Below, in pieces: positions 8,797 through 63,006 of a DNA stretch of 64,000 bases. The position numbers and the translations under genes were made by a program. Position 1 is the first letter of the stretch, and every line of letters begins with the position of its first letter. The stretch covers positions 5,766,001-5,830,000 of the forward strand of contig NC_090363.1 of NCBI RefSeq assembly GCF_035084215.1, given 5' to 3'. Source of the stretch: Heptranchias perlo. Taxonomy: Eukaryota. The notes below the pieces were generated by a model. The model made no database searches and was not told the DNA's origin. It saw nothing but the letters and a program-made list of their open reading frames with translations.

Positions 8797-8830
8797 GTAA
8801 CCGCTGGCTGTGTCGTCGCCGCCGCCGCTC

Positions 8831-32542: not shown

Positions 32543-32960
32543 CATAGAATTACATAGAATATACAACACAGAGACAGACCACTCGGCCCAACAGGTCCAT
32601 GCTGGTGTTTATGCTTCACATGAGCTTCCTCCCTCCCTACTTCATTTAACCCTATCGGCATATCCTTCTATTCCTTTCTCCCTGGTGTGTTTATCTAGCT
32701 TCCCCTTAAATGTATCTACACTATTCGCCTCAACTACTCCTTGTGGTAGTGAGTTCCACATTCTCACCACTCTCTGGGTAAAGAAGTTTCTCCTGAATTC
32801 CCAATTGTATTTGTTAGTGACTATCTTATGTTTAAGGCCCCTAGTTCTGGTCTCCCCCGCAAGTGGAAACATCTTTTCTATGTCTACCCTATCAAACCCC
32901 TTCATAATCTAAAAGACCTCTATCAGGGAATCCCTCAGTCTTTTTTTCTGGAGAAAAGAG
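32543..32960 (-). mobile_element. CR1 3' end
   Basis: ORF 32642-32905 (RRNFFTQRVVRMWNSLP) and tail. Confidence 0.85.
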
Positions 32961-33162
32961 CCACAGTCTGATCAAACTTTTCTGGTGAGCTGATGAATAG
33001 GAACTGTTTGCTAACGGAACAATTTGTGTCTAACTCAAAGGCATTGAATTGTCCAGTAGAAGGTATAACATGTAAGACAATTTCATGTATAACACAATCG
33101 TACACGTTCAAACCTGAATAAAGATAAAACTAAAATGAGAAAATATGAAGACAGTGACTCAC

Positions 33163-33220
33163 CAATATGTAAAAACATTGTCACTAAATTCAGGATCGTC
33201 CATATGTGAATAGTTTGCAT
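33163..33220 (-). CDS. NCR3: NKp30/NCR3-like gene A, leader exon (MQTIHIWTILNLVTMFLHI)
   Basis: ATG, hydrophobic peptide, phase-1 gtgagt donor; identical copy upstream of gene B. Confidence 0.8.
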
Positions 33221-33300
33221 TTTTACACGTTCTCTACAGGACAATACCAGCTCACGTTTGGCTTGCAGCGACCCAAAGTGCTGCTAAACACAGCAAACAT

Positions 33301-33365
33301 TCCACCGCAGGCACTGACGTGTGTGGAAAAAAAACCTGCGGTGGTTTAATTACCACAGACCACGA
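33301..33365. promoter_or_regulatory. RUNX-core cluster (ACCGCA, TGCGGT, ACCACA) plus TGACGT upstream of the gene A leader
   Basis: Three RUNX cores within 55 bp, ~85-140 bp upstream of the ATG. Confidence 0.45.
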
Positions 33366-33845
33366 ACTATGTTTATTATTTTTCCAATTGTGCTGGGAAA
33401 CAATATTTTAACAATAATTAGGAAAGAACACTACGTCAATGTTGCATAAGCGTCACCGAGTATATTGAGACAAAAATGGATTAGAGTTCAGTTTAATCCT
33501 CCATAAACTACAATGGTTTGCACCGGAGATAGAAACTCATCTTAAGTTTCCTCAAAAAGCAGAATGTATGGAAACAGTGCGCAGTGTAAAGCCAGATTGA
33601 AATGTGGAATTCCATGGATGAAACTATGCAGCGATAGACTCCATGGCGGGATTACCCAAATGGACACTTCGGATAGATACCCGGAGTCTCTGATATGCCT
33701 TTGGCACCAGATTCCGGGATGACCCATTTGCTTCAGAAGAAGAATGCGCGCGGAGAAAATCAGAAGGGAAACTTTATTGAAAAAACTTAGACAGAATTAT
33801 AAAAGCAGATTCTGTTAGCAGAGGGTGTTACATTCAAAAGGCCTG

Positions 33846-34682
33846 TATGCAGCAAGACCTGGACAACGTCCAGGATTGGGCTGATAAGTGGCAAGTAACA
33901 TTCGCGCCAGATAAGTGCCAGGCAATGACCATCCCCAACAAGAGAGAGTCTAACCACCTCCCCTTGACATTCAACGGCATTACCATCGCCGAATCCCCCA
34001 CCATCAACATCCTGGGGGTCACCATTGACCAGAAACTTAACTGGACCAGCCACATAAATACTGTGGCTACAAGAGTAGGTCAGAGGCTGGGTATTCTGCA
34101 GTGAGTGACTCACCTCCTGACTCCCCAAAGCCTTTCCACCATCTACAAGGCACAAGTCAGGAGTGTGATGGAATACTCTCCACTTGCCTGGATGAGTTCA
34201 GCTCCAACAACACTCAAGAAGCTCGACACCATCCAGGACAAAGCAGCCCGCTTGGTTGGCACCCCATCCATCACCCTAAACATTCACTCCCTTCACCACT
34301 GGCACACCGTGGCTGTAGTGTGTACCATCCACAGGATGCGCTGCAGCAACTTGCCAAGGCTTCTTCAACAGCACCTCCCAAACCCGTGACCTCTATCACC
34401 TAGAAGGACAAGAACAGCAGACACATGGGAAGAACACCACCTGCACATTCCCCTCCAAGTCACACACCATCCCGACTTGGAAATATATCGCCGTTCCTTC
34501 ATCGTCTCTGGATCAAAATCCTGGAACTCCCTACCTAACAGCACTGTGGGAGAACCTTCACCACACAGACTGCAGCGGTTTAAGAAGGCGGCTCACCACC
34601 ATCTTCTCAAGGGCAATTAGGGATGGGCAATAAATGCAGGCCTCGCCAGCGATGCCCACATCCCATGAACGAATAAAAAAAA
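33846..34682 (+). mobile_element. Second non-LTR retrotransposon family, 3' fragment with A-tail
   Basis: QQDLDNVQDWADKWQVTF..LGVTIDQKLNW..IYKAQVRSVMEY. Confidence 0.9.
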
Positions 34683-36019
34683 TATATAAATGTACACAAA
34701 ATTTGCAACTTTTTTCAACACAGATATTCAGCAATCTATGCAATGGACCTAGGTCCACAGTGGAGGGCAGCAACAAGATTTAAAATAATAGCAGAGAAAA
34801 TAAATTGATGACACCAAGCACAGGCACGATGGGCCGAATGGCCTCTTTCTGTGCTGGACCATTCTACGAAGCTGTAGATTGCAAAATGAAGAGAAGGTGG
34901 AGGAAGGTAATGATTTCCATAACTTTCAGCTCCTGGGTCATAGTAAGTTACAACAGGAGAGGAACTTGATTTCAACACCATAATAATGCAGGGAGGTGTA
35001 AGAGGGCAAATTTGGAGCTTAGAATACCCGGGAAATCAGAGGAGCGCTGGTCATAGTACAGCAATATCAATAAACCAGCATGAAAACAGAACTGTCACGT
35101 CTTCACAAAGATTATTGATAAAAGTGCATTTAGTTAAACGTTTAAGTGGCTAAACTTTGAGAGTGTGCTTTGCCTTAAGACGTGGTGATCTCTGTCTGGG
35201 TCAGGTTCAAATGAAACAACCTCAGTTCCTTCTCTATTAGTTTTTAATAAAATCTTATTTATTCATTTTGAAAGAGTTTTTTGACCAGTTTTTGATGTTA
35301 AATAGAGTAATACGTGTCGTAGAAGACAAATTGAACTTTAATTTCTGAAGCCAACAAATGGTAATGGAATGATTGTACAGCACAAAGAAACGATCACAAT
35401 GTAGCAAATGTGTTTAACGATGGATTAATCTAATAAATTTAAAAAATAAAACCAGTTCTTCTTTTGTGTCTATTCTGACAGAGAATGAAAGCAACCACCA
35501 TTGTGCAATGCTTAATTCAGCTGTAGAGGGATATGAAGCCTTTTTAGTGTTTCAGTATGAGTTGTCCAAATAGGGAACCGATTTCTGTACAGCGATCAAA
35601 CCCACGAACTAACTTATAGTGTTTCGTAGCTGCATTTGCAAATCACAATTCTGGTATTGCATTACCTCTTTCACCCATCGATACCTGGCTACACGTTTCA
35701 AGATCTTACTGACAGATCAATGTCACTTTATTGGAAATTAGTTTTGCAGAAATATAATATCAGTGAATCATAACGTCTAGTGTAATGTACATTTTGGTTT
35801 CCTGCATAAATTACAAAACCACTTCGCTCTACCGCTGGTGCAAATTCAAAGTGCTAAGCCATCAATGGGAAGACACTACAAATCATTTGGGTCATAAACT
35901 GACCTGCTGGAAAAGCTCAGCAGGTCAAGTAGAATCTATGGGAAAAGGAAAAAAAGTTAACGTTTCAGGTATATAATCTGAAGATGCATTTAAGGGGGAG
36001 CTAGATAAGAACATGAGGG

Positions 36020-36870
36020 GAAAGGGATAGAAGGATATGTTGATGGGGTTAGATGAAGTAAGGTGGGCGGAGACTGGTGTGGAGCATAAACACCAGTATA
36101 GATCTGTTGGGCCGAACGGCCTGTTTCTGTGCTGTAAATTCGATGTAATTCTATGTAACAATCCTTCGTCAGGACGGGAAGGGATTAAAAATGGACAGTT
36201 TATACGAAGGAGCAGAGCAAGAGAGTGGAGGGGTAATTTCATACAAAAGAAAATAAAATAAGAGGGCAGACGGGGCCTCGGTGTAACGTCTCATCCGAAA
36301 GACGCCACTCCCTCTGTACTGTCACTGGGAGTGTCAGCCTAGATTTTCTGCTCAATACTTTGCAGCTGGACTTGAATCAACAGCCTTCTGACTCAGAGGC
36401 GAGAGCGCGATCCACCACTGAACAACAACATTTAGAACTGCACTAATATGGAAACTTGTGAATAATTTTATTCCAGTAATCTTCTTGGAGGTTAATAAAG
36501 ATGTGCTACTTTTGTCACTTCATGAAAGCAGAAAGGGTCACTTTCGTGTGAAGAATTCCATGCAGTTTAGCACAGAGAACTGATACCTTCCTGATCACGT
36601 TCAAAAAGGGAAACGGTATATAAAGAAAACCAAAGATTAAACTGTGTACTATCACAATGAGACCAAAGTTCTTATTCTTTAACAAAGTGTTCAAAATCAT
36701 GTAGGGCTTAGATAAAGTAAATAAAGAGAAACTTTTCCCATTGGCGGAAGGGTCGAGAACCAGAGGACACAGAGTTAAGGTGATTGGCAAAAGAACCAAA
36801 GGCGACGCGAGGGGGAACTTTTTTTGTGCAGCGAGTAGTTATGATCTGGAATGCACTGTCTGAAAGGGTG
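36020..36870. repeat. Segmental duplicate of ~57760-58630
   Basis: Near-identical sequence; ORF-track translations 36037/57776 and 36515/58274 match. Confidence 0.92.
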
Positions 36871-38681
36871 GCGGAACTGATTGAAAAGGATGCAACTCTT
36901 ATTCTCAAGAGACACAACACAAATATCGGAAGTGATGACCAGAAATGGCGTGAAACTCGCAGCAAACTGTCAGTAGCAGTATACCAGGGATCAAATATTT
37001 GTAAACAGACTGACATTGAACGGTCTGAAAGTCACATGCGGTTTATCCATCGGTATATAATTTACAGGCACAAATCACACAAATGCTTGAGAGTGGCATA
37101 AACTATTACGGGTGTTTGTGGGAATTGATATGGCAGAAAAAAGAAAAAAAGTGTAAGTTTTAGGGAAATCTATGAATGAATAGATAGTCAGGCAGACCGA
37201 CTTTAACTCGGATTCTCTACAGTTTTTCCATTGCCTTTTCGTGTCTTCAGTAGTGCAACATGGCACAGATCGAAATCCCCTTTTCGGCTTCACATTTTCT
37301 GGTTTCCCTGGATGTCAATCCTTGCAGGAACGCGCTAATGGCAGCAGCGTTGACGTGCTGTACATTCTAATATAACCCTGAACTCCTTCATCACTGGTAA
37401 TTCTGTATCTGTTGGACTATAGTCTAAAAGTGCTCTTGCTGATCGTAAAAGATGCTCCTGAGGATTGGAGAACAGCAGATGTTACTCCCATTTCTTTTAA
37501 AGGTACCAAAAGTGACCCAGGAAACTGCAAACCAGTGATTTTGACGGCCATTGTGGGTAAAGTTATGGAAACCCATATTAAACATAACATCATGGAGCAG
37601 CTGGATAGAAATAAAATCATAAAAGATAACCAATATGGGATCATGAAGGTCTTGATCATAACAAGCGGCGTCACCTTGTCCAGAACAGTGGGACCAGAGG
37701 ACACGGCCTGTAGGTGAAGGAGGATGAATTCAAACCGAATCTGCAGAAGCTGAGCGAGTGGCAACTCGTGACTTCGATGGAAAGGGAAATCGGGAGAGGT
37801 GTTTAACGGACAGCCGATCCAATATCGTTTTACACTATCGACACAAGTTAAAATTACTCCCTCTTCTAGATTGTCATATAGTTGAACTGCCGTGCAAGTT
37901 ATAATAAAAGAAAATTTGATGTTTATAGATGTGAATGGCAGAATCAGCTGTGCAAATATTTCATCAGCTTGCTTCTTTGACCTATAACTTTTGATATGAT
38001 GCCTGGTTGTATAAAGCACCATACGATCTATCTCTTCCATTTAAAGCGCCTTAAATAGTTTTGTACTATAACTGAAATCACACTATGACTGAAACATTAC
38101 TTACTAATCGAAGAATCAAATAATATCACTTTAATTAACACTTATATTTTAATATCCTGTCTCATTTTCTGTCACTTGCACACGGCAGCATCGCTGACTC
38201 TGGGCTGGTGAGGGCGCTGCAAACCAGAACAGCCTACGTATTGCAGGTGTGACCTATTCTCACTCGGTAGACTTTGTTCATCTTAATCAGTTATACCGTA
38301 TAAAACTCATGCCTAAACAATAAACAATTATTGGCAAAATGCACAAATAGCACAGCAGCCCAAGGTGCTGGGACATTTTACAATGTTTTATAGGATTGTT
38401 ACTGAGAGTCAGCACGCCGGTGGAAAACAGATCTTAATAAATCTACTGATATTTCCGCTGGTTGCTTCATATATGTTCTTGCTTTAAAGCTTTAAATCTC
38501 TCATGTGAAAGATTTTAGAATGATGTATTCCCGTTGGTGTTACTATTTTAGATCATCCAACTGCAGCGACCTGCAGATATAAGAGTGGTTTAAACTTTAA
38601 GCTTTAACTTCGGGCATTAGTGCAAAATGGGCTCTATCGAATCGACCGCCTATTATTCGCCCACCAGATTTTCCCGTCCAT

Positions 38682-38866
38682 TGGGGGTGATTTTAACCCC
38701 CAAGAACGGGTGGGAGTTGAAAATAGTTGGTTTCGGCTTTATTTCCGGGTTTAACGTCGGCGCCGAAAAGTACACTGGGAATGCAAAGTCTGAAAATTTT
38801 GCGATTGCGACCCAAAAAAACCCAACTATTTTCAACTCCCTCCAGTTTGGGGGTTAAAATCAGCCC
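38682..38866. mobile_element. MITE copy, internally deleted
   Basis: Same TIRs. Confidence 0.8.
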
Positions 38867-40064
38867 AACATTACCCCTACTTTGTGGATGGGCTCGTTAT
38901 GGAAACTTCGCAATTTTCATTTCGATTCACTTCAACAGAAATGAAAATGGTGCGATTTGTATAAAGGGCGGCCAATCCACAATGCCTTTTTCATGCCAGG
39001 ACAATGGGAGCAATTTTAACGTCTGTAGTCAATGGAAGGGAAAATTGGGTGAGATGTATAACGTGCGGTCGACCCAATAGCAGGACAGGTTCTTTTTCCA
39101 ATCTGCCTTGTTTTGGCTGTAAGCGGGGATGCTACAGTTTGCTCCGTACTCCTGGTTAAGCAACAGAAATGTCAGCTATGATTTCCGCTCGCAATCACAT
39201 TGAATGACCACTGGACACAAACATCCATATGTGAACATTGGGTGAGGGAATGTTGGACTCGGTTGTGATGTCCATTCTACCCATCAATGCCTGTGCCAGC
39301 TCATTGAAAGAGCTATCAAATTATTCCCACTCCCCCACTCTTCCTCCATAGTTGTGAAAACTGGTCCTTTACAAGTCTATATCCGATTCCCCTTCGAAAG
39401 TTTCTACTGACCCTATTCCCACCACCCTTTCAGTCAGTGTATTCCAGATCATAACAATTGGCTGTGTAAAAAAAATTCTCCTCGTCTCTCCTCTGGTTCT
39501 TCAGCCAATTATCTTCAACCTGTATCCTTTGGTTACCGACCCCTCCGCCAGTAGAAACAGTTTCTCTTCATGGGCTATATCAAAACCCCTCATCATTCTG
39601 AACACCTGTATTAAATCTCCCCTTAACCTCCTCTGCTCTAAGGAGAACAATCCCAGAGCGTTCTATTCACATAGGGACCTGAAAAAATCTTCACCCTATA
39701 AAGTATCTTCTGTAGACCAGTAGCTTAATTTAAACTGAAATGTCTAAGGGTCCTTGTGGTTTTGGTTTTAAAGTGCAAAAAACCATCAAGCATTTGTACA
39801 TGTTGCCTTTTCTCGCAGAAACCCGGATGTAACAGTACCGCTGAAAGCTGTAACCATCAAAAAATTAAAGCTTATATATGTTGGAGTATAGATTAAGGTC
39901 AATTATTCACGTGTATTGGAACAATATGTTTCGCAAGAAAACAAAAAAAATTATCGCTCCAGTTTTTAGTGTGAAAGTAACAGATCTACTAAAGGGGGTG
40001 TGGGTGTGGCTTGCTTGTAACAAACTTAAACCACAAAACATTACCTGATAAGAAACAACTATGC

Positions 40065-41620
40065 TTGCATCCGAGGGTCTTAAAGGAAGTGGCTACAGAG
40101 ATAATGGATGCTTTGGTTGTAATTTTCCAGAATTCACTAGATTCTGGGAAGGTCCCAGCGGATTGGAAAACCGCAAACATAACACCCCTATTCAAGAAGG
40201 GAGTGAGACAGAAGGCAGGTAACTGTAGACCCGTTAGCCTAACATCTGTCATTGGGAAAATGCTAGAATCCATTATTAAGGAAGTAGTAGCAGGACATTT
40301 GGAGACTCATAATACAATCAAGGAGAGTCAACATGGTTTTATGAAGGGGAAATGACGTCTGACAAATTTATTAGAGTTCTTTGAGGAAGTAACGGGCAGG
40401 GTTGATAAAGGAGAACCAATGGATGCAGTATATTTAGATTTCCAAAAGGCATTCGATAAGGTGCCACATAAAAGTTTACTGCACAAGATAAGAGCTCATG
40501 GTGTTGGGAGTAATATACTGGCATGGATCGAGGATTGGCTAACTAACAGAAAACAAAGAGTAGGGATAAAAGGGTCATTTTCAAAATGGCAATCTGTAAC
40601 TAGTGGGATGCCGCAGGGATCAGTGCTGGGGCCTCAACTATTTACAACATATATCAATGACTTCGATGAAGGAACAGAGTGTCTTGTGGCTAAATTTGCT
40701 GATGATACAAAGATAGGTGGAAAAGCAAGTTGTGATGAGGACACAAAGTGCCTGCAAAGGGATATTGACAGGTTAAGTGAATGGGCAAAAATTTGGCAGA
40801 TGGAATTTAATGTGGGAAAATGTGAAGTCATCCACTTTGGGAGGCAAAAAAAAGCAAAATATTATTTGAATGGAGAAATACTACAAAATGCTGCGGCACA
40901 GAGGGATCTGGGTGTCTTTGTACATGAAACACAAAAAGTGAACATACAGGTGCAGCAGGTAATCCAGAAGGCAAATGGAATATTGACCTTTATTTCGAGG
41001 GAGATGGAGTGTAAAAGCAGGGATGTCATGCTACAACTGTACAGGGTGCTGGTGAGACCACACCTGGAGTACTGCATACAGTTCTGGTGCCCTTATTTAA
41101 GGAAGGACATACTTGCATTGGAGACAGTTCAGAGAAGGTTCACTAGATTGATTCCGGGTATGGAAGGGTTGTCTTATGAGGAAAGATTGAACAGGTTGAG
41201 TCTATACTCATTGGAGTTTAGAAGAATGAGAGGAGATCTTATTGAAACATATAAGATTCTAAGGGGACTCGATAGGGTAGATGCTGCGAGGATGTTACCC
41301 CTCATGGGGGAATCTAAAACTAAGGGGCATAGTCTCAGAATAAGGGATCACCCGTTTAAGACGGAAATGAGGTGGAATTTCTTCTCCCAGAGGATCGTGA
41401 ATCTTTGGACTTCTTTACCCCAAAAAGCTGTGGAAGCTGAGTCATTGAACACATTCAAGGCTGAGTTAGACTATTTTTTGATCAGGAAGGGAGTCAAAGG
41501 ATGTGGGGAAAGGGCGGGAAAGTGGCGTTGAGGTAAAAATCAGAATAGCCATGATCTCATTAAATGGCGGAGGAGGCTCGAGGGGCCGAATGGCCTACTC
41601 CTGCTCCTATCTCTTATGGC
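40065..41620 (+). mobile_element. CR1 LINE, 5'-truncated
   Basis: 370-aa RT ORF 40419-41531. Confidence 0.95.
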
Positions 41621-42286
41621 CAGATAGTGAAGTAATATTTTCCATCACTGGTTAATGACAGCAGAAATTATTTGCATGACAAATTGAGAAATGATCATTT
41701 ATCATTATTGAACCACATGATCCGCGTTGCAAAACAAAATGCCTTTTTCTGAGAAAAGGCAAGTGTTGTGTGATGGAAAAATAAATCATCTCTCTTTTGA
41801 TCATGTACTTTTCAAGCTTGAAGTGACTCTAAAAGGATAGCTTTTCTTTTAATAGATGATGAGTTCTAGAGTGGTTATAATATTCGGTTAAAATACTCAT
41901 CAGGGCGTATTTCACAGGGTTAATTTTAACTTCACCCTCCCATTGGAAAACGGACGGGCTCGGGTGCAATGCATAAACCCACCCCCGATTTTAACTGTTC
42001 CTGCTTGCTGGAAACTGGCTGGGGCAGTTAAAATAATTCCAGTCACTTACCCCCTCAAATCCCGTTGCCTTCCCATCGCGTCCCACTAAATTAGGCTGCT
42101 CTTTTAAGCAGGCGAGCAGGACACACGCAGAAATGAAGTGAGGTCCCACTTTAAAGATATGGATCGGGTCTGATGATGTCATCAAGACCCGATCTGCAAT
42201 TTTAGTTGAAGGCTTGAGCGGGGTGGGGGGGGGGGGGAGCAGTCATAGTTTCCCCCGTCAGGCAAACCTGTCTGGAGAGGGATTAT

Positions 42287-42530
42287 GGGGGTGATTTTAA
42301 CCCCCAAGGACGGGTGGGTTGGGGGCGGGTGGGAGTTGAAACTAATTGTTTTTTTGGGTCACAACTGCAAAATTTTCAGACTTTGCATTCCCAGTAGGAA
42401 GCCTGTACTTTTACATGCCCAAGTTAAACCGGGAAATAAAGCTGGGTTGCCGTCGCGACCCATAAAACAACTATTTTCAACTCCCACCCATCCCCAAACC
42501 ATCTGTTGTTGGGGGTTAAAATTACCGCCG
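42287..42530. mobile_element. MITE copy
   Basis: Same TIRs. Confidence 0.85.
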
Positions 42531-43244
42531 TAATCATCCTTTAAGATGGGCAGGGCTTCCATGTCCCCATCCTTGCCGGGGTCGTCAATGAAGTCAAGGG
42601 AAAATAATATTGAGCAAGGCTAAAACCGGCGTTACACCCGAACCTGTCAGTTAACTAACCGGCCGTTTAGGTTAAAATTGTCACCTACATCCCTTCCAAT
42701 TTTTATTTCCATTGAAGTCAGCGGAAATAAAAATTGGGAGAGGTGCAAAACGGGCTGCCGATTCGGTATTACCCATTTTACACTATTGCGTAAATTCAAG
42801 ATCAAGATTCAAGACCCTGTGAATTATCTCTGTTTGACTTCAAGTCTTCTTGCTCCCTAGAGATACAAGGGCCGGGTATGGGGGTAATATTGACTTGGAG
42901 GATCATTGCTGGTATCTATAATCCTTAGTATAAAGAAGGACTTCCTGATATCAATAAATCTGCTTTTTACTGGATAGAACCTACCTTCCCTTTCTTCCTT
43001 TCCCGAATCTTTGTCTCCCCCTCCACCCCCCCCCCCCCCCCCCATACCAGGTGTCTGCTCTTTTCCTCTTAATCTGTCCTATGAAATCATCTGAGACATT
43101 GTTCTGTGGATGAGCAGCTCTGTAGAAATACAGACTATTATTGACATATATCCTATTATTATTTAACCGTGTAGCAACAATTCCATTTGATTATTACCAA
43201 AAACAGAAATAAAAAGACAACAAAAAGGTGGCCTGAAATGCACT

Positions 43245-43250
43245 TTTATT
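43245..43250 (-). terminator. Candidate gene B polyadenylation signal AATAAA
   Basis: AATAAA on the - strand followed by a T/GT-rich downstream element (~43200-43228). Confidence 0.55.
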
Positions 43251-44643
43251 GAAAAGAGCAAGAACGTTGAATTTCACGATGCAAGACTTCAAAACTGTTT
43301 GATAAATTCAGGCATACGCTTCAGTCCCCATATCTATGCTGGCTTTAAGTTGTTGTTGCAAAATAGGAGGTTTACATATCAGAAGTATAGATGATTAATT
43401 AAATATTTGTAACATTTCGATCCCCAGGCAGAGATATACCCAGATGCAGACACTAAATTCTGTTAAACTGATACAAGTGTTACTTATCACGTGAAATCAT
43501 TTTAAAAGAACGGGGAAAATAACACAACAATCTTACGAGTTGCTTTATCTACTTTAACTACATGACTACCTACATTAATATCATGCATTATATTTTATAT
43601 TCTAATAATTTTGTTTCTTGTTTACTTATAGGTAGCATATGTTCTACTGAAGTGTTTAAGAATTTCTTTATGATATACAGTGAGAAATTTGTACACGTAA
43701 ACGTTCCTTTCAATTCTGCTTGTTACTGTCCTTCAACTTTTTCAATTGCTAGTTGGACGCAATGTACAAGCATACACATTGTATAGAATTCCTTTCCCCA
43801 GTTAAAAGTGGCTTTATCAAGGATTTTCACCTTCCAGTTCAACAAAGAAAAAAGCTGGGCTATTCTCCAGTCAACAGCTGTCATGAGTGCATACCTTTGG
43901 ACAGCAATTTGGGGGTCATCTGTGAATATTGTCTTCTAGGCCACCTCGAACAAACAATTGTAGAGCATAACGCAATAGGGCCAGTTTTATTATTGAGAAA
44001 CCTAGGTATAGGCCTCAAAACCAACAAGAACAGAACACCACAAAGGTTCAGAAGAGTCAAGAAAAGGTGATAAGTTTTGAAAGCCTATGGATTGTAGGAG
44101 GTAGGGTGGATAAGAGGATTGAGAAGCCTGCAGTTCTAAGGTCCTGGGGAAGAATGACTTCAAGCTGCACATTGTGTGATTAACCTTTATTTGTAAAGGA
44201 CGACGGTACAAGGAGGAGGAAGAAAGCATACGATGTTGTACTTGTAGTATGAGAGGAACAAGAGAAGCTCAGAGGAGCAATGAACATAGCGGCGTCGATA
44301 AAATACAAGTCCGAAAAGCTGCGACAAAAAAAATAGATGTGTAAATAATTTCCCTTCTAATATTTAGGTATTCGAAAGCATTTCAGTGGAATGGACCTTC
44401 TCATTATTTGTGAATCATATCAATTATTCCTGACAGCAGGCCACCCAACACCTAACAGCAACTTCAAAGGAAGGAGAGGTATTTAAAATTTCATACATGT
44501 ATTCTACATCAGTGTTCAAAAACTAGTTATCTCACAAAACAGTAACACTGTAATTAGATGTTTTAATCTCACGGTTTGTTTGATACAGCAGGTGGTGAAA
44601 TAGATATGTGGTAAAAACCAGACAGTGCCACACTGGTTGGAAT

Positions 44644-44730
44644 CTACTGCATGTTCTTTCTTGTCTGTGGTCCACGTTTTTGCTTTGTCTTAACTTCATT
44701 ACCGTGACAATGAAGATAATTCTCTTCATG
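44644..44730 (-). CDS. NCR3: Gene B putative last exon (HEENYLHCHGNEVKTKQKRGPQTRKNMQ*)
   Basis: ttctttctccaaag acceptor; open in phase 0 to TAG; reading frame depends on the preceding exon. Confidence 0.5.
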   Translation of the reverse strand, partial: HEENYLHCHGNEVKTKQKRGPQTRKNMQ

Positions 44731-44831
44731 CTTTGGAGAAAGAACATGAACATTATGTTGATTTGTATCAAGATAAAAAGAAGGCATTCTTTCACCACTA
44801 AATTTTATAAAGCACGCATTTTTTTCATAAC

Positions 44832-44854
44832 CGCTGCGTTATTCCCTTCAGAAC
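44832..44854 (-). CDS. NCR3: Gene B putative small exon (GSEGNNAA)
   Basis: aaacag/gttatg (weak sites); phase 1->0 parallels gene A exon 6. Confidence 0.4.
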
Positions 44855-45494
44855 CTGTTTAAACTTGTAACGGTCTACAAATTACACCGTGCCAAATTAG
44901 GCTTTTCTAAGGCATGTGTGGAATTCAACAGTTTTATCTTGGACAAATTGAGTTGTGCTGGGAAACAATGCCACGGGTCTTTGATTTTTACACAGAGGGT
45001 GCAGAGAGCAGGCGTACGGAGCTAAGGAGGAATACGACATAGGCGACTATCGGAACAGTGTCAGTATGAATAAAATGGGGGAAAACAGATTTAAAAGGAT
45101 GCCACAGTGAAAGAGAGAGAGGCAGAAAGAGATTCCTATCACCATAATTGATTACATTGTAGAACTATAATAACTCTGCATTTACAGGTCTCAGTTACAT
45201 GCATGCACGAAGGATATCTATGTGGAAAGCCCCCAGAGGAGAATGTTTGTTTTGTAAACATTTTATGTAAAGTCTTTGTTAGCTTTAAAAGAAAGAGTCA
45301 AAGTGATCCATCTAACTTCCTGGGGACTTTGCAAAATCATTCCACAGAGATTTAAACTCTCTACAGTCAAACAAAAAGCTCCCTCTTCCAGGCGAAGCCC
45401 TCACTCTGGGTATAGGTAAAAGGGTAAAAGATATACCCTTTGCAATGTTTGTATCATTCCCCCTCTTAGGTAAAAAGTGCAGAATTCTTAAAAT

Positions 45495-47860: not shown

Positions 47861-48799
47861 AGATTGACACCACGGGTATAATGTCCTACCGAACAGAAAC
47901 CACTGCCCAGCGTACTAATACCAGTATCATGAATGCTCGCTAAATGAAATCCACATGATTAATCGGTCAGATTAAGGAGCACAAAGCAGTCACTGGATTC
48001 ATTAATCTGTATTTTGGCGGCAGGAATCAGTGCCCAATTCGCGAGATGGGGGCCACACAATAGGCGGGAAGTCCTCCAGTGGAATCCGTGCAGTGCTCAA
48101 TCTTCCTGCTAACCTTTTAGGTCAACTTCAAATGTTGTCATAGTGGAACTTTGGAGAACTGCACCAGAAAAATTATATTAATTTAAAGAAGGCTTCTGCA
48201 CCACTTTCTGTTTTGCATTGGTCTTGTACACGTGGAATGACCGCAAAGGGAGCGCCATGTGCAATGGAAGTCTTAAAAGAATAGTTTCTTATACTTTTTT
48301 TCGTTTTCACCTTTTCAGTAACGATCGTGTTGTTTCTTTTAAAAAAACACGTGTCCATTCCTTGCCTTTCTATATTTTGTACATTTCATTTTAGTTTTTT
48401 TTTAATATCAGAGTACATGAGGAATGTTAATGTTAAAATAACAGTAACAATGCATCTGTAAATTCACTCGAAAGCCGAGTGCAATTGAAACATTTAAAAT
48501 ATTTCAGCAGAACTGCGAGAGCTTTGAGAAGGACGGTCACCATAAAGAGACTCTTACAATACACATTTTCAGGGGAGTTCTGAAAGCTACAAGGTATCTA
48601 AGTACAATCTGTGGATTCCCGTGGAGGTTAACAAGTTATAGCAAAATTAATGATGGGCGTTGGTTTTAAAGCGCCCAAATACAGTGTATTGTCATTGAAA
48701 TGGTGCAAGATGAACAGACGTGTGCGATAGGGACCAGCAGACACCCAGAGCTGGATTAGCTGCACTTGTCATTATGCCATTGCCATATCTGTAGGTCTT

Positions 48800-49180
48800 G
48801 GCATACCGACCTGGCAATGACCAAGGACAACTGCCTTCGCAGCTTATGGGACAGCAGAGAACCAGATGTGGAACTATAACATATACTACCAGGAAACATG
48901 TGGCAACCCCACGCCACAAAGCGGCAAGGCAGCCGCAAGTCAAGTTTACCACTGCAATCATACTTTTACAATCTAGAGGAGTAGGTATAGAATGCCAATG
49001 GTAATACCCACGGATGTATCACACTGGTGGCTGATGCATCAGCCAGCATCGCCAACACTTACATTTCGTCTCGCCGAGAATAACAATGACAGCATGATGT
49101 GACTCAGCAATGCCACTGCATTATTGCATCTTCCACTGTGCAGGGATCATTGACAGCAGCCATGTAACTATTTGGACATT
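48800..49180 (+). mobile_element. PIF/Harbinger transposase relic
   Basis: VKFTTAI and GIIDSSHVTI resemble HARBI1-type GAIDCTHVAI. Confidence 0.5.
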
Positions 49181-49754
49181 AGGCTTCAACTCTTCCTCAT
49201 GCTGCCCACCACTTGCTGTACCCTGTGACTCAGCTTCTGTAACCTCCTCAGCTTCTGGCAGGATGCGTGTTGCTGTGCTGGTGCTTGCAAATGTTGGTGA
49301 GAAAGATGGAGACGGTGTGTGGTGTTGTCTTGTTCTGACCTACATGCTTCTCTCCAGGTTTACAATGACAAAAACATGTTAGAATGCTGATCCTAAGATA
49401 TATCTTCAAGGAAAGCATTCGTTACAAGATGGGAGGAGGGGGGGGGGGGCGGAGGTAATTATATCCTAACCCGCCCGTCGGAAAACTGACGCGATCGGAT
49501 GCAACGCTCATTTTACGCCATTATTTCTCGTATTTTCCTCCTTTTATTTCAATTAAAAACATGTATCATCGTATTTTGCTTTGATCACATATTGTTCAGA
49601 TATTTCTGCAGGTCATTCCAATGGTTTTATCATGCACTTTTGATAATTATTTGATGTAATCAATAATTTTGCACAAAAATGTGGAAGTGGAATTGTATAA
49701 TCTTTTATACATGACACACAACACATGCAACTAGACAGACAAACAAGCATTTAC

Positions 49755-49798
49755 CTGATGATTGGCATGGCTCTGTACTTTGTTTCTGTGTGGCAATT
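49755..49798 (-). CDS. NCR3: Gene B cytoplasmic exon (RIATQKQSTEPCQSS)
   Basis: aaacag/gtaaat; 44 nt, phase 2->1. Confidence 0.62.
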
Positions 49799-50059
49799 CT
49801 GTTTGGGACAAAACAGAAATAAAGTTATTAAAATGCTTAAGTTATATCTGAAGTTCTGGTGATTAATATTTCCAATTTCAAAATGTACTCTCGGATGCAT
49901 TTATAGTGAAGTTTCCAGTCAGGTGGGAGCTCGGCTATGTTGCATGATCTTTCTGGAATTCTCCTACCCAGCTCTGTTTAGACACATGCGCAGATCACCC
50001 TCTCGACGTTTAAAATAAACTTCCAAGAAAAAAGTAGAAGGAAAAAAAGCAGCAGTTAC

Positions 50060-50488
50060 ACAGCGCCTTTCACGATCTCAGGACGACCCAAAGTGCTTTA
50101 CAACCAATGAAGCACTTTTGAAGTGTAGTCACTGTTGTTATGTAAGAAACGCCACAGTCAATTTGCGCACAGCATGTTCCCACAAACAGCAATGAAATAA
50201 ATGATCAGATCATCTGTTTTACGTGTTGTTTGAGGGATAAATGCTGCCCAGGTCAAAGGGACAACTCCCCTGCTGTCATATCTCTTATGTCCACCTGGGA
50301 GGTCAAACAGGGCCTCAGTATAACATTGCATCTGAAAGACCGCAGCATTTTGACAGTGCAGCACTCCCTCAGCATTGCACTGGAGTGTCAGCCTCGATTA
50401 TTTGCTCAGGTCTTTGGAGGTGAAGTTAAACCCATCACCTTCTGACTGAGAGCCGCGAGTGCTGTGCACTGAGCCACGGCTGACACTG
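50060..50488 (-). mobile_element. SINE (same family); further copies at ~7001-7247, 14700-14965, 19670-19915, 36255-36420, 54560-54915, 58005-58160
   Basis: Reverse complement of 4148-4590. Confidence 0.8.
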
Positions 50489-51349
50489 AAGGGGTACCGT
50501 TCCATATTTTCCTTTATCTTATTGTCTCTGCTATGTAATTCCTATGAATGGCTTTTAAGGGGATATTTGTAACCGAACTCGCCGGCGGCAAACTTACTGG
50601 ATCGGGTGGAATTCTCGATTTACACCCCGCCCAATCCTATCAGTTTCCCAACAGGCCGATTAGCTTAAAATTGCCCATTTTCAGTTGATGACATTAAGTC
50701 CCGCTTCAATTACTGGGACAATTTTCTTTTTGAAAATTATTTTGAGAACTATATTCATATTATAAAGATGCAGAACTCATTCCACGTAACTATAGTCTAG
50801 TTAACATTCACATAGCATTCAATCGCACTGAGAGAAACGGGAGAGGAATTATTAAGTCAATCAAGCGACTCATTAAACACTCAAGTATTAATTATTTGCT
50901 TCATATTCCATGCTTGTCGCTGGCTATAATGAAGGCTTCTGTCTTTGCTGATACTAATGGAATATAAACCAAGCGCCAATCGTTATCATATCGTATGTTC
51001 CATTTAGACGAGAGCCTTTTATCCCTGCCTAGCGGAAATAGTAAAATGGAAGCAAAACAATGGCTGACACACACACACAAATAAACAGACACACAAACAC
51101 ACACACACACACAAACACATACACGCGCGCGCTCTGTTCAACTTGTTACAAGCAGTTCACAGTCTGTTAAGTAAACCAAACAAATGTGCGAACCACTTAA
51201 CCGGTTCTTTTGCAGAATCGAAAGAAGTACATTCTCTGTAGAAGAAGAAGATATTTAGCAGATGTGTTATTGAACTGCAATTTTTCGTACTTTGAAAAAC
51301 TTTTAGAAGAAAGCATTACATTCGGCAAGGAAACTATTGTTTGGCTTAC

Positions 51350-51368
51350 CTGAAAAGCGAAGCTAAAG
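51350..51368 (-). CDS. NCR3: Gene B 19-nt microexon (ALASLF)
   Basis: ttacag/gtaagc; same size and phase (1->2) as the gene A microexon. Confidence 0.65.
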
Positions 51369-51487
51369 CTGTAAATTGAAAAGAATGCAGAAATATAATT
51401 CGTGTTAATACAATTATTGATAATGCTATTGGCGATTATTGTAACAATACAATGATATCAACTCTCAAAAATATGAAATCCTCCAAA

Positions 51488-53232
51488 TAGAAACATAGAA
51501 ACATAGAAAATAGGAGCAGGAATAGGCCATTCGGCCCTTCGAGCCTGCTCCGCCATTCAATATGATCATGGCTGATCCTCTATCTCAATACCATATTCCC
51601 GCTCTTTCCCCATACCCCTTGATGCCTTGTGTGTCCAGAAATCTATCTAGCTCCTTCTTAAATATATTCAGTGAATTGGCCTCAACAGTCTTCTGTGGTA
51701 GAGAATTCCATAGGTTCACCACCCTCTGAGTGAAGAAATTTCTCCTCATCTACCCTGTATCCTGAGACTGTGACCCCTCGTTCTGGACCCCCCAGCCAGG
51801 GGAAATATCTTCCCTGCATCCAGTCTGTCTCGCCCTGTCAGAATTTTATATGTTTCAATGAGGTCCCCTCTCATTCTTCAAAACTCGAGAGAATACAGGG
51901 CCGAGTCGACCCAATCTCTCCTCATATGACAGTCCTGCCATCCCAGGAATCAGTCTGGTGAACCTTCACTGAACTCCCTCTATGGCAAGTATATTCTTTC
52001 TTAGGTAAGAAGAACAAAACTGCATACAATCCTCCAGGTGTGGTCTCACCAAGGCCCTGTATAACTGCAGTAAGACATCCTTGCTCCTGTACTCAAATCC
52101 TCTTGCAATGAAGGCCAACATGCCATTTGCCTTCCTAACTGCTTGCTGCACCTGCAAGTTTGCTTTCAGTGACTGGTGTACAAGGACACCCAGGTCCCTT
52201 TGTACATCAACATGTTCCAATCTATTACCATTTAAATAATATTCTGCCTTTCTGTTTTTCCTTCTGAAGTGGATAACTTCACATTTATCCACATTGTACT
52301 GCATCTGCCATGTATTTGACCACTCACTCAACTTGTCTAAATTGCCTTGAAGCCGCTTTGCATCCTCCTCACAACTCAGGATCCCATCTAGTTTTGTGTC
52401 GTCAGCAAGCTTGGAAATATTACATTTGGTTCCCTCATCCAAATCATTGAGATATATTGTGAATAGCTGGGGCCCAAGCACTGATCCCTGTGGTACCCCA
52501 TTAGTCACTGCCTGCCATCCCGAAAAAGACCCATTTATACCTACTCTCTGTTTTTTTTTCCTGTCTGTTAACCAATTTTCAATCCATGCCAGTATATTAC
52601 CACCAATCCCATGTGCTTTAATTTTGCACACTAATCTCTTATGTGGGACTTTAACAAAGGCCTTCTGAAAATCCAAATAAACCACATCCACTGGTTCTCC
52701 CTAATCTATTCTACCAGTTACATCCTCAAAAAACTCCAGGAGGTTTGTCAAACATGATTTCCCTTTCATAAATCCATGTTGACTTTGTCTAATTCCGTCG
52801 ATATTTTCTAAGTGTCCTGTTATCACATCCTTTATAATAGACTCTAGCATTTTCCCTACTACTGATGTCAGGCTAACCGGTCTGTAGTTCCCGGTTTTCT
52901 CAGTCCCTCCTTTTTTAAATAGTGGGGTTACATTTGCCACCCTCCAATCTGCAGGAACTGTTCCAGAGTCTATAGAATTTTGGAAGATGACAACTAATGC
53001 ATCCATTATTTCCATGGCCACCTCTTTTAGTGCTCTGGGATGCAGATTATCAGGCCCTGGGGGTTTATCGGCTTTCAGTCCCATTAATTTCTCCAGCACT
53101 ATTATTTTACTAATACTAATTTCCTTTAATTCCTTCTTCTCACTCCCCCATTGGTTCCCTAGCATTTCTGGGAAGTTACTCGTGTCCCCTTCGGTGAACA
53201 CGGAAGCAAAGTATTTGTTTAATTGCTCTGTA
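51488..53232 (-). mobile_element. CR1 LINE, 5'-truncated
   Basis: RT ORFs 52701-53201 and 51966-52691. Confidence 0.95.
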
Positions 53233-53651
53233 CATTCATCTCTGCTGGATGTCTTTACTGTTAGACCTGATGACTTAATAGTAGGATTTTAATAATAATG
53301 AGCAGTGCCCCTAATATTTATTTCGTTTCCTGGTTAATGTCTCTTTAATTGTTTTATTTTTTCCCATATTTGGCAGATGATAACGAAGTACATGATGAAA
53401 ACAAAGTTACTTGTTATCCCACATTCCCTGAGAAATACCGTGTGCCTCAGCACGTTATCACTAGTTTGAAAAAGTCATCCTGATCACAAGGTTCCTAATT
53501 CATTGCAAAATGGGAAATCTTTTGAAAATTCACCACAAAATTGCAAAAAGAAAACTGAATCGTATTATGACGATTTCTTGTTATTCTGAGGCATTAGATA
53601 GAAAATGTGATGATTCTACAGCTTGTCTATTATTTTAAACATTTGAAGTAC

Positions 53652-53786
53652 CTTTATTTCTCCTAACAAGGACTGCAATCACCACAAGCAGTGTCAGGGT
53701 AATTAGTATTGTCACTCCACCTCTCACTACGACCCACATCAAATCAAACTGTGAGCTTTCTAAACTGTTTGGGTTGTCACAAGAAT
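53652..53786 (-). CDS. NCR3: Gene B stalk + TM exon (HSCDNPNSLESSQFDLMWVVVRGGVTILITLTLLVVIAVLVRRNK)
   Basis: ctacag/gtactt; 135 nt; TM with N-terminal Arg (VVVRGG, cf. NKp30 LLLRAG). Confidence 0.87.
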
Positions 53787-54133
53787 CTGTAGAAAGAAAA
53801 AAAAACAATAATAAGTAATTTGTCCGTAAATAGAAATAGTAAGTACAACAGCAATGAAAACAGTGATACAAGGAAACACAGATAGAATAGATAGGGAGAC
53901 GGGTACACAAGCAGAAACGCAAATAAATACAAGATAGATAGGGAGAGAAAGCGAAGGAGACACACACCACCCATCGGCAGAAAGAGTGAGCAAGACAAAA
54001 AGGCAGAAACAGAGGGAAATCCGCCCAACACCGGTGTGACACACCATTAAAGAAAGGATTAAGGAAACAAGAGAGTTTTAAATATGGAAACGATATCCCA
54101 ATGCCTTAATGTTACAATGTTAGGTTTTCTTAC

Positions 54134-54460
54134 GCTTTACAGTAACCGAGGTTCCTCTACCGACTGCCTTCGGCTCGCCCATTATTTCAACCTCACAGTA
54201 ATACACTCCAGACTCGCATTGCGTCATATTCATAATTTTGATTGATGCATCCCGCCTGAGTTTGAACGCATCCTTGTCGGCTTTTATTAGTCTTTTCTTG
54301 TACCTCGGAGAATCAAAGTCTAAGATACTGCTATCTTTTCTCCATCTGAAGATACCAGGCCCTGATATACGAAAGGTGCAATTCAAAATCACGCTTTCAC
54401 CTTCGAATAAAGTAACTGAAGTGGGATTTTGCACTATGGTAGATGTTTCAGCTTCCAAAC
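54134..54460 (-). CDS. NCR3: NKp30/NCR3-like gene B, VJ-type IgV exon
   Basis: cactag/gtaaga; 327 nt, phase 1-1; NCTF..WRK..RL..ESGVYYCEVEI..VGRGTSVTV. Confidence 0.9.
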
Positions 54461-56044
54461 CTAGTGACGCACAAAAAAGCACAAGGATTAATTAGCCATC
54501 GTTACAGGATAAAGCAATACGCATTATGCACCTTGTACCGATACCATCTTGGTTTTGTAGCAGCACCATCGTCTGTGACTCAAATGGTTGTAGGTTCAAG
54601 GCGCAATTGAGGCCTTGAGCACATTATTCTAGGCTGACACTTCAATGCAGTACTAAGTGAATGTGTTTTTTTCAAAGCGGAGAAAGTTCTCCCGGTGCAA
54701 TAGCCAACTTTCAGTCCTCAAGAAACACCACCAAAACAGCTTAACTGGCCATTCGTCTCATTGCTCTTTGTTGGACTTTGTTGTGAGCAATGTGGTTGAC
54801 GCGTTTACCTACAAAGCAACAAAGACTAGTCAAAAAACAATAATCATTGTTCAATAGTCATTCATTGGCTTTGGGACGCCTTGAGGTTGTGTAAGATGCA
54901 ATACAATTGCAAATTTTTTCTTTGTATCATGCAGCCTCAACTTACACTTTTGCTTTAATATGTTATGTTATTAATTCCAAAGGAAATTATTATATGAATA
55001 ATAGTAAGAAAGAAAAAGAGAGAAAAAAAACAAGAAAGTAACAAAAAAGAAAGAAAATGTTACATTCATTATTGCTTCATTAATAATAGTATGAAGTAAT
55101 AAATCAATGCCATACATTTTTTATTCTTATATAATTATCCAGGAATGTCTGATTTCCACATGAGGGAAATATAAGAAAACACGTTCAGCAAATGTAATAG
55201 AGGCGGGGTATTAGCTTGTTGTATATATTCGACATTAAGCCGTAAGTTGTACAGTAAATCATTTGTGCATTGTAAACTGTGTACATCTTAAAGTCAGGAA
55301 AAATAAAACATTGGCTCATGTTAATTCAGTCATCTAATTGACGGTAAATATCGAGTCTAATACACCAGGCGACTGTCAGAAAATTAATTAGTTAAGGACA
55401 GCATGGTCAATGTGATGAATTTGTGAACCGCTGTTTAGATATTGAAGCCATACGCTAGTCACCCTTGTGAACATAAGGTCCCACTTTTCGTTACAGATTG
55501 AACCAAGGTTTTTTTGTATATTGAGCTCAATTCCATCAATGATCAACTTTTTACACCTTGCCAATAAATAAATCAATTTCATTTACTTCCTACATTTAAA
55601 GATTACCATCTCGGACCCTGGTGTATGATTATCTCATTTGGCTGCTAACCGTAAAGCAAAAATAAGCTATGAATAGAATAATAGGATATGACCTATCAAA
55701 AATATAGTTATTGTGATGCTTTCACAGATAAAAAACCTTCATTGTTTATTTATTATCAACGTGTGTCCATGAGTTCCCTGGGGTGATTTATTCATTTAAT
55801 GGCCAATATTGCTGGGGTATAAAATATACCCAGGTCAGAAAACCACTAGGTAAGATTTCCAAATATATGCAGAATCATTAAACAAAAAATGATGAAAAAT
55901 ATTATTCAAATAACAAGCAAGAAATATTACAGAGAACAACAAAGAACGATAGTTTTTTCTAAATGTGGTGCATTTGGCTGCAAATGTTTTGGAAGAAATC
56001 AATTCGGTGATTGTATTAGTTGATTTTATAAACATTATTTTGAT

Positions 56045-56580
56045 ATATATATATTAATGACCTGGACTTAGGTATACAGGGTATAATTTCAAAGTTTGCA
56101 GATGACACGAAACTCGGAAATGTAGTAAATAATTTAGAGGATAGTAACAGACTTCAGGAGGACACAGACAGACTGGTGAAATGGACAGACACATGGCAGA
56201 TGAAATTTAACATGGAGAAGTGTGAAGTGATACATTTTGGTAGAAAGGATGAGGAGAGGCAATATAAACTAAATGGTACAATTTTAAAGGTGGAGCATGA
56301 ACAGAAAGACCTTGGGTGCATGTAATCAAATCTTTGAAAGTGGCAGGACAAGTTAGCGAGTTCCACATTCCAACCATTCTCTGGGTAAAGAAGTTTCTCC
56401 TGAATTCCCTATTGGATTTATTAGTGATTGTCTTATATTTATGGCCCCCTACTTCTGGTCTCCCCCGCAAGTGGAAACATCTTCTCTACGTCTACCCTAT
56501 CAAACCCCTTTAATATCTTAAAGACCTCTATTAAGTCATCCCTCAGACTTCTCTTTTCTAGAGAAAAGAGCCCCAACCTG
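56045..56580. mobile_element. Fused CR1 fragments (+ strand 56045-56355, - strand 56356-56580)
   Basis: KFADD region followed by an inverted 3' end. Confidence 0.8.
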
Positions 56581-57251
56581 ATCAATCTTTTCTGGTGAAC
56601 TGATGAAGAGGAACTGTTTGCTAACGGAAATATTTGTGTCTAACTCAAAGGCATTGAATTGTCCAGTTGAAGGTATAACATGTTAGACAATTTCATGTAT
56701 AACACAATCGATTAGGAGCCCTGAACTTAATTTATTTCCAGAAGTAAATTTTAGTAGGTCCCTTTAATTATATTAATCTCTTAAAGCCAATTCACGGCAT
56801 CTGCTTGAAGGAGAACATTTAATGTGTGTGCATATTTCTAATCAGCATTTCATTGCCTGAAACGGCGGTTGAAGCAGATTCAATAGCGTCTTTGAACTGG
56901 GAATTGGATATATACTTGCAATGGAAAAAATGCAGGGCTATGGGGAAAGAATGGGGGAGGGGGTTAAATTGGCAGTTCTTTCAAAGAGCCGGCACAGGCA
57001 CGATGGGTCGGATGGCCTCCTCCCGTTCTGTATAATTCTGTGATAAAGCTGGCCTAAAGATTAAATACTTGTACCCTACAAGTGCTGGATTCACCACAAC
57101 AAAGTAAAATTAAACAGTTTTTTTTACACTGTCACTACAATTATGTATTATTCCTGTGTAAGGAACCAGTCTGCCCAACCAAATGCTCGTACACGTTCAA
57201 ACCTGAATAAAGATAAAACTAAAATGAGAAAATATGAAGACAGTGACTCAC

Positions 57252-57309
57252 CAATATGTAAAAACATTGTCACTAAATTCAGGATCGTCCATATGTGAAT
57301 AGTTTGCAT
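57252..57309 (-). CDS. NCR3: NKp30/NCR3-like gene B, leader exon (MQTIHIWTILNLVTMFLHI)
   Basis: Identical to the gene A leader; phase-1 gtgagt donor. Confidence 0.8.
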
Positions 57310-57390
57310 TTTTACACGTTCTCTACAGGACACTACCAGCTCACGTTTGGCTTGCAGCGACCCAAAGTGCTGCTAAACACAGCAAACATT

Positions 57391-57455
57391 CCACCGCAGG
57401 CACTGACGTGTGTGAAAAAAAACCTGCGGTGGTTTAATTACCACAGACCACGAAC
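57391..57455. promoter_or_regulatory. Same RUNX-core cluster upstream of the gene B leader
   Basis: Near-identical copy of 33301-33365. Confidence 0.45.
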
Positions 57456-59020
57456 TATGTTTATTATTTTTCCAATTGTGCTGGGAAACAATATTTTAAG
57501 AATAATTAGGAAAGAACACTGCGTCAATGTTACATCAGCGTCACCGAGTATATTGAGACAAAAGAATGGATTAGAGTTCAGTTTAATCCTCCATAAACTA
57601 CAATGGTTTGCACCGGAGATAGAAACTCATCTTAAGTTTCTTCAAAAAGCAGAATGTATGGAAACAGTGCGCAGTGTAAAGCCAGATTGAAATGTGGAAT
57701 TCCATGGATGAAACTATGCAGCGATGGACTCCATGGATATTTAATGGAAGGATGAGGAAAAAGGGATAGAAGGATATGTTGATGGGGTTAGATGAAGTAA
57801 GGTGGGCGGAGACTGGTGTGGAGCATAAACACCAGTATAGATCTGTTGGGACGAACGGCCTGTTTCTGTGCTGTAAATTCGATGTAATTCTTTGTAACAA
57901 TCCTTCGTCAGGACGGGAAGGGATTAAAAATGGACAGTTTATACGAAAGAGCAGAGCAAGAGAGGGGTGGGGTAATTTCATACAAAAAGAAAATAAAATA
58001 AGAGGGCAGACGGGGCATCGGTGTAACGTCTCTTCCGAAAGACGCCACTCCCTCTGTACTGTCACTGGGAGTGTCAGCCTAGATTTTCTGCTCAATACTC
58101 TGCAGCTGGACTTGAATCAACAGCGTTCTGACTCAGAGGCGAGAGCGCGATCCACCACTGAACAACAACATTTAGAACTGCATTAATGTGGAAACTTGTG
58201 AATAATTTTATTCCAGTATTTAAAAAGTAATCTTCTTCCAGGTTAATAAATATGTTATTTTGTGCTACTTTTGTCACTTCATGAGAACAGAAAGGGCCAC
58301 TTTCGTGTGAACAATTCCATGCAGTTTAGCACAGAGAAGTGAAATCTTCCTGATCACATCCAAAACTACCAAAAAGAGAAACGGTATATAAAGAAACCCA
58401 AAGATTAAACTGTGTACTATCACAATGAGACCAAAGTTCTTCTTAATCTTTATAGAACTGTTCAAAATCAAGAAGGGTTTAATTAAGGTAAATAAAGAGA
58501 AACTGTTCCTATTGGCGGAAGGGTCGATAACCAGAGGACACAGAGTTAAGGTGATTGGCAAAAGAACCAAAGGCGACGTGAGGGTGAACTTTTTTATGCA
58601 GTGAGTTGTTATGATCTGGAATGCACTGCGTCAAAGGATGGTGGAAGCAGATTCAATCTTGGCTTTCAAAAAAGAATTGGATAAGTACTCGAAAAGCAAA
58701 AAGAAATTGCAGGTCTATGGGGAAAGAGCAGTGGAGTGGGACTAATTGGATAGCTCTTTCAAAGAGCTGGCACAGGCACAGTGGGCTGAATGGCCTCCTT
58801 CTGTGCTGTATGATTCTCTGATAAAGTTGGCCGAAAATAAAATACTTATACTCTATAAGTGCTAGATTCAACCCAAGGTAAAATGAAACTATTTAAAACC
58901 GTTACTTCATTATGTATTATTTCTGCATAAAGAACCAATCTGCCCAATCGAATGCTCGTACACGTTAAAATGTTAATAAATGCAAAGTGAAAATGAGAAA
59001 ATAAGAAGGCAGTGACTCAC

Positions 59021-59068
59021 AGACATGTAAATGTATTATCATTAAATTCAAGACTGAATAGTATGCAT
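59021..59068 (-). pseudogene. Degenerate third leader exon (10-nt deletion, early TGA)
   Basis: Aligns to the 58-nt leader with the gtgagt donor retained; ATG CAT ACT ATT CAG TCT TGA. Confidence 0.75.
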
Positions 59069-62991: not shown

Positions 62992-63006
62992 TGCCACCTA
63001 CTGGTA
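62992..63006 (-). promoter_or_regulatory. CTCF motif, reverse orientation
   Basis: Reverse complement TACCAGTAGGTGGCA matches CCASYAGRKGGCR. Confidence 0.55.

Follow-up and report, generated by a model that had tools for sequence, protein, structure and literature searches.

A chimeric receptor gene in the shark Heptranchias perlo probably joins the promoter region and leader of one receptor gene to a duplicate of another

We analysed a 64,000-nucleotide stretch of the Heptranchias perlo genome (the window; NCBI RefSeq assembly GCF_035084215.1, contig NC_090363.1, positions 5,766,001 to 5,830,000 of the forward strand) that carries two receptor genes, A and B, each with leader, VJ-type variable (V), transmembrane (TM) and short tail exons. 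Both lie on the minus strand, and coordinates throughout are window positions. We hold with high confidence that B is a chimera. Its body is a young duplicate of a third gene, B', and its promoter region, its leader exon and a piece of intron 1 come from A; ectopic recombination at repeats labelled here as CR1 fragments is the most likely way in which the two were united. If it is still active, B would be transcribed under A-like control. The comparisons show an A-type cassette on a B'-type body, movement from A to B, CR1 at both cassette edges and later, separate deletions.

Self-comparison of the window recovered three colinear blocks between the A and B regions, where a first-pass annotation of this DNA had paired two, and also exposed a relic third copy which that annotation lacked. 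The matched intervals are 32747-33646 with 56354-57736 and about 36013-36885 with 57752-58656. In B the cassette (56354-58656, minus strand) comprises an intron-1 piece, the leader exon, a putative promoter and a distal block. The 58-nt leader exons of A (33220-33163) and B (57309-57252) are identical at 58/58 bases, exactly as annotated. The core around the leader and the region upstream of it has 7 mismatches in 548 bp (98.7%), and the segment just beyond the large gap has 12 in 450 (97.3%). The description of the blocks as near-identical thus suits these segments, but further outward identity is only 88–95%. The A intron-1 block (32747-33100) matches B 56354-56710 at 90%, with its gene-proximal edge inside a CR1 3' fragment, and the A distal block (36020-36885) matches B 57759-58656 at 97% falling to 88%, ending in a truncated CR1 3' fragment. 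Mismatch rates of the core and the intron block differ (Fisher p=3e-9). The unique flanks of the cassette carry 6/124 and 15/210 mismatches, and the CR1 fragments at its two edges 28/229 and 25/205; these fragments are very high-copy in read contigs.

Two gaps, annotated as about 480 bp in A and 2.4 kb in B, measured 476 bp and about 2.37 kb. The 476-bp segment (B 56711-57186) is missing from A, where there is TCG microhomology at the junction (33098-33100). The 2.37-kb segment found only in A (33647-36019) holds a LINE 3' end and unique DNA and was presumably deleted from B, where the join consists of a short filler and a truncated repeat. Altogether the cassette copies differ at 94 positions plus these two large indels. 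Outside the shared tract, A and B agree at 42 of 105 aligned V-domain residues (40%; 35–40% had been estimated by eye), and the TM exon and four tail exons align as DNA no better than shuffles in 5/5 pairs, in agreement with the annotation that they could not be aligned. The 7-exon layout is nevertheless common to both, including a 19-nt micro-exon directly after the TM exon, and in each gene the Cys-Trp-Cys core and GxGT strand lie within one exon, indicating a single VJ-type V domain.

To assign the leader we compared orthologues. An A-type leader is present in Heterodontus, Mustelus and Stegostoma, three of the five other species with an A-type record; the models of the remaining two, Chiloscyllium and Pristis, are without any leader. 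A different leader, unrelated to that of A, is found in B' itself and in all 13 aligned B-lineage proteins from other sharks and rays. The B' search comprised 18 proteins, of which 15 were aligned; P0161, P0072 and P0170 were left out, and the first two of these also show the B'-type leader. Since three other sharks have the A leader in their A orthologues, the leader belongs to A, and since B' and 13 orthologues carry the other one, a B' duplicate must have acquired the cassette from A. Judged from sequence, the transfer was one-way, from A to B.

The protein closest to B is P0006 (XP_067830063 of H. perlo), the product of B'. Its V domain is 88% identical to that of B and its tail nearly identical, while its leader is unrelated. 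Within the B lineage the tree places B' as the sister of B, with support of 100/100. At the DNA level they differ at 20/328, 7/135, 15/263 and 14/287 positions, or 4.9–6.1% across introns and exons alike, and on this sequence comparison B is a young duplicate of B' (5–6% divergence). The likeness extends to at least 54840 and is lost by about 55200, where a linker found only in B (55050-56353, left edge approximate; unique DNA and a CR1 fragment) separates body from cassette. The 5' and 3' parts of B therefore trace to different parents, both of which are retained. Neither a B'-type leader anywhere in the window nor a second AYALLV micro-exon on its minus strand was found. A 78% CR1 match between 31974-32259 and 56065-56354 was considered as a sign of shared ancestry and rejected, because the genome holds many closer copies.

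A relic cassette copy lies upstream of B (58624-59515, minus strand) at about 76–78% identity. Its pseudo-leader has a 10-bp deletion and in-frame stops, and its proximal promoter is deleted; from its sequence it is an older, dead copy. Three short segments, like the 476-bp one, occur in both the relic and B but not in A; A has therefore lost all four. The cassette units are divided by CR1 3' fragments in the same orientation (56851-57044, 58459-58822 and 59689-60077).

The annotation attributed the movement of the promoter-leader block to recombination with the gene-proximal edge inside CR1 fragments; we find CR1 at both edges, and the most likely route would be ectopic recombination at these fragments, joining the A cassette to the body of the B' duplicate. 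Divergence of 5–7% in both suggests that capture took place at about the same time as the B/B' duplication. Afterwards, 476 bp were lost from the A copy and presumably about 2.37 kb from the B copy. The mismatches in the unique flanks fit a rate of 5.5% (p 0.47 for 6/124 and 0.18 for 15/210), whereas the core departs from it (7/548, p 3e-7; 12/450, p 0.003). We somewhat favor later re-homogenisation of this 1–3% core by gene conversion, with selection holding the core similar a slightly weaker candidate. The annotation had offered gene conversion or unequal crossover; conversion is plausible as this later step, but a plain unequal crossover is insufficient, since the DNA upstream of A and B is not colinear past the block. 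Nor was the event very recent, as had been supposed: the copies carry separate deletions and 5–12% differences at the flanks. The epaulette shark mutation rate is given as 7e-10 per site per generation (PMC10587355). By that rate, uncalibrated here, even the 1.3% core would be millions of generations old; we rejected dating in years, since this was the only rate at hand.

Several observations weigh against our account of how B arose. At 12%, divergence of the CR1 edges exceeds what one event at 5.5% would give. Between 36886-44640 and 58657-64000 there are only two CR1-type matches and no colinearity. The 1.1–1.3-kb linker has no match in the A intron. The A 5'UTR is conserved in the A genes of Heterodontus and Mustelus, and constraint may thus account for some of the sequence identity in the core. 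None of the listed read contigs spans the repeat-rich join of cassette and body (55975-56638), and the fusion thus rests on the assembly; the DNA run with the relevant contigs, X3, may moreover come from the assembly's own sample and so not be independent. No protein identical to B was found in two homologue searches, a weak negative. Lastly, the V domains of B and B' give a dN/dS of 1.4, which does not depart from 1 (p=1.0) and fits relaxed as well as diversifying selection; derived changes fall on both branches.

The body of B runs from the V exon (54134-54460; 88% protein and 94% DNA identity to B') through the stalk/TM exon (53652-53786), micro-exon (51350-51368, 19 nt), tail exon 2 (51201-51235) and tail exon 3 (49755-49798, spliced model) to the last coding exon (44644-44730), which in the B' frame agrees with P0006 at 27/28 residues. 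Three changes bear on function. Near the start of the TM segment, the Ala codon of B' (GCA) is replaced in B by an Arg codon (AGA, 53724-53722) through two adjacent base changes; the Arg is absent from 12/12 orthologue TM regions, and neither A nor B' has a charged TM residue. The micro-exon reads ALASLF instead of AYALLV, so that a Tyr kept in 13/13 orthologues is lost. The donor of tail exon 2 for the B' frame is TT instead of GT, and an alternative GT 1 nt upstream causes a frameshift. The Tyr and donor losses are damage that the first-pass annotation had missed. B also departs at an Ile position kept in 12/13 orthologues. P0163 is an annotated isoform of B' that joins a site within the V exon directly to the TM exon and thereby omits most of the V domain.

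NKp30 pairs with CD3-zeta or FcR-gamma through a TM Arg (PMC6514059). The Arg of B would be predicted to allow the same pairing, and the lost Tyr and altered tail to remove B' signalling. On this analysis we give slightly less than even odds to B being an activating receptor, a prediction whose alternative is a decaying copy. That alternative, that B is a real chimera but was dead on arrival or is a decaying pseudogene in which the Arg, the lost Tyr and the lost donor are drift, is evenly balanced in our judgement and concerns function only. It accounts for the donor loss, the changes at near-invariant positions and a dN/dS near 1, and it is in keeping with the loss of 2.37 kb of upstream DNA from B and with an earlier cassette copy that is already dead. 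Set against it, the leader, V and TM exons are open-frame, all but one of the 12 splice sites are canonical, and the Arg required two adjacent substitutions. Skipping tail exon 2 or using the upstream GT still leaves ectodomain and TM intact in a membrane protein 195 or 271 residues long, and the V and TM exons have no gaps relative to B' against 3–4 in about 590 nt of adjacent intron, a weak point. A fuller proposal, which we regard as speculative and on balance improbable, is that B is an expressed, lineage-specific activating receptor of natural killer (NK) or T cells, combining the ligand-binding body of B', the expression programme of A and the new TM Arg and tail-Tyr loss, with the CR1-flanked cassette a reusable module. 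Cassette copies of three different ages are present, possibly plus one in a further B copy.

Read contigs were compared with the window at 88% likeness. The four DNA runs come from one sample, possibly that of the assembly, and cover 86–88% of sampled words. In X3, contigs with the letters of B run without differences across body, cassette and relic, and one spans the B side of the 476-bp indel, also without differences. Contigs with the letters of B' (5–6% differences) and A-type indels occur alongside the B type. As a hint only and not a copy number, X3 depth is 13–17 for B-type contigs, 7.4–7.7 for B'-type, 6.7–8.3 for A-type and 21–25 for the shared core. The roughly twofold depth of B-type contigs (53300-59600) hints at a further B copy, unassembled or collapsed. 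At 55954 the sole covering contig has 2 extra bases, a possible small assembly error or copy difference. Runs X20, X21 and X22 are RNA by our guess. Contigs of X20 and X21 have V and TM in B' letters, one being a V-TM join, and the 20 V differences in them translate to P0006. The leader region has depth in all three runs, with no cover over the V exon in X22. No V or TM contig in B letters appears among the listed rows of these runs. A joint of leader to B V is likewise absent among the 15 joints listed, which is no evidence either way because contigs drop rare forms.

These data bear on whether B and B' are instead alleles or haplotype variants of one locus, the leader capture being a segregating structural polymorphism of the SIGLEC14/5 type. 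The two genes B' and A are annotated on contigs of equal size (21,079,719), no B protein is on record and the window may represent the alternative haplotype; divergent alleles are also known for MHC-linked genes. Yet the 5–6% divergence holds in introns as well as exons, and alleles would be expected at equal depth with A double, unlike the X3 depths, again taken as a hint. We consider this explanation improbable.

It is more improbable still that recent 5' gene conversion homogenised a pair of ancient, functional paralogues at their present positions and keeps them co-expressed, close to what the annotation had suggested. The identical leader, the 98.7% core with identity falling stepwise outward and the 40% identity of the V domains would fit such a history, as would the retention in both copies of transcription-factor motif matches in the putative promoter (three RUNX-type, shuffle p 0.007, and three CRE half-site, p 0.016; six motifs tried). 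But B, which received the block, stems from a young duplication of B', and B' survives with its own ancestral leader, meaning that no rewiring of the old B lineage took place; the A leader occurs in 0/13 aligned B-lineage proteins of other sharks and rays; and the A and B copies carry separate post-transfer deletions. A false join of the A 5' end to a B-type body in the assembly is equally improbable: the join does lie in very high-copy CR1 sequence with no listed contig across it, but the B cassette differs from that of A at 94 positions and two large indels, both types of letters occur in X3, cassette, linker, relic and body of B share one depth class (13–17), and no other leader lies near the B V exon.

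The chimera reading of B being retained, we turn to gene A and its surroundings. The spliced A model equals P0003 (XP_067829800.1 of H. perlo) over 259/259 residues. Its exons are the leader (33163-33220, 58 nt), ancestral to the A lineage; V (29832-30170); stalk/TM (26994-27125), with a hydrophobic stretch lacking a charged residue; micro-exon (26770-26788, 19 nt); two 41-nt tail exons (26627-26667 and 24379-24419); and the last coding exon (23571-23720). The last contains the tyrosine motifs YSTL and YSTV, spaced ten residues; where the second motif lies, the Heterodontus orthologue reads LEYSTI, which is ITIM-like. The 5'UTR and putative proximal promoter (33221-33646) lie within the 98.7% core. 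The best solved-structure (PDB) match of the A V domain is human NKp30 (E 4e-7), and A groups with the nurse shark NCR3 record QTT61901.1 (95/96). For the B V domain, SIRP-alpha, TCR-alpha and NKp30 score about equally, and the B lineage does not group with the nurse shark record in a tree with poorly resolved deep branches. The nurse shark NCR3 paper is reportedly that of Kinlein et al. 2021.

Downstream of A lies a convergent DDAH-family gene (8698-15990, plus strand; ends approximate, exons read by eye), whose exon 12515-12658 matches DDAH1 structures (E 2e-15). It is likely DDAH2, a marker of MHC class III. Its introns carry minisatellites of 67 bp (9797-10062), 35 bp (11626-12286) and 38/45 bp (12922-13324). 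A third V exon, of C type in a gene with a TM Lys, was not found in the window, nor therefore in the interval separating B from A. Such an NCR3-like gene with a TM Lys is fused upstream of A in P0004, a Mustelus model, and in Heterodontus (P0144) it has an adjacent accession.

Annotators should be aware that the extra gene B seems absent from protein collections, and that depth hints at an unassembled copy. Because both parents survive, promoter capture and the TM Arg are open to direct tests of their effects. A silent B would be an ordinary relic of gene birth and death.

Anti-Lepore globin genes are extra hybrids whose 5' end derives from the downstream gene and whose body derives from the upstream one. 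A plain event of that type would duplicate the whole intergenic region, unlike the A/B locus, where no such upstream duplication is present. In the SIGLEC14/5 fusion allele, recombination between tandem genes placed a coding body under a neighbour's promoter and changed expression (PMC4042635), and the B body likewise sits behind a neighbour's promoter region. That event, however, removed a gene, and the 5' ligand-binding exons involved are near-identical; the shark locus gained one, from parents with V domains of 40% identity, and what is shared is limited to promoter and leader. SIGLEC11 and SIGLEC16 have fragmented conversion tracts that include upstream DNA, with a proposed expression change and a non-functional partner (PMC5701461). 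Those tracts homogenise the V-set ligand-binding domain, whereas here the V exon is outside the tract: V identity of A and B is 40%, and the 88% of B and B' stems from duplication, unlike conversion between paired receptors.

NCR3/NKp30 is described as an MHC-linked VJ gene (PMC12227049, PMC10751288). Human NKp30 and shark NCR3 resemble our genes in having a single non-rearranging VJ-type V domain, a TM segment and a putative MHC-type neighbourhood, and B has a TM Arg as does NKp30 (PMC6514059, PMC12227049, PMC10751288). They differ in that A has no charged TM residue and has a tail with tyrosine motifs, and in that the B lineage does not group with nurse shark NCR3 in the tree. Activating KIR and Ly49 receptors arise from inhibitory homologues and are later lost, being short-lived (PMC2213150). 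B is similar as a young duplicate that gained a charged TM residue and lost a tail tyrosine; it differs in that no canonical ITIM was found in B', its activation is predicted and its promoter comes from a third lineage.

Both promoter swaps and activating receptors derived from inhibitory ones are thus already known in kind. The shark case is unreported in the literature searched, where we found no account of the locus or of a promoter-swap receptor in sharks; supplements (that of PMC10751288 may list the cluster) and the main shark NCR3 paper were outside its scope. It provides an example, dated by divergence, of an expression module and a ligand-binding module reshuffled separately in the oldest living adaptive-immune lineage. 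Should B prove to be an expressed activating receptor, sharks would show how such receptors are born from non-activating ones, as happens in mammals with KIR, Ly49 and Siglec, and expression would have been exchanged separately from specificity.

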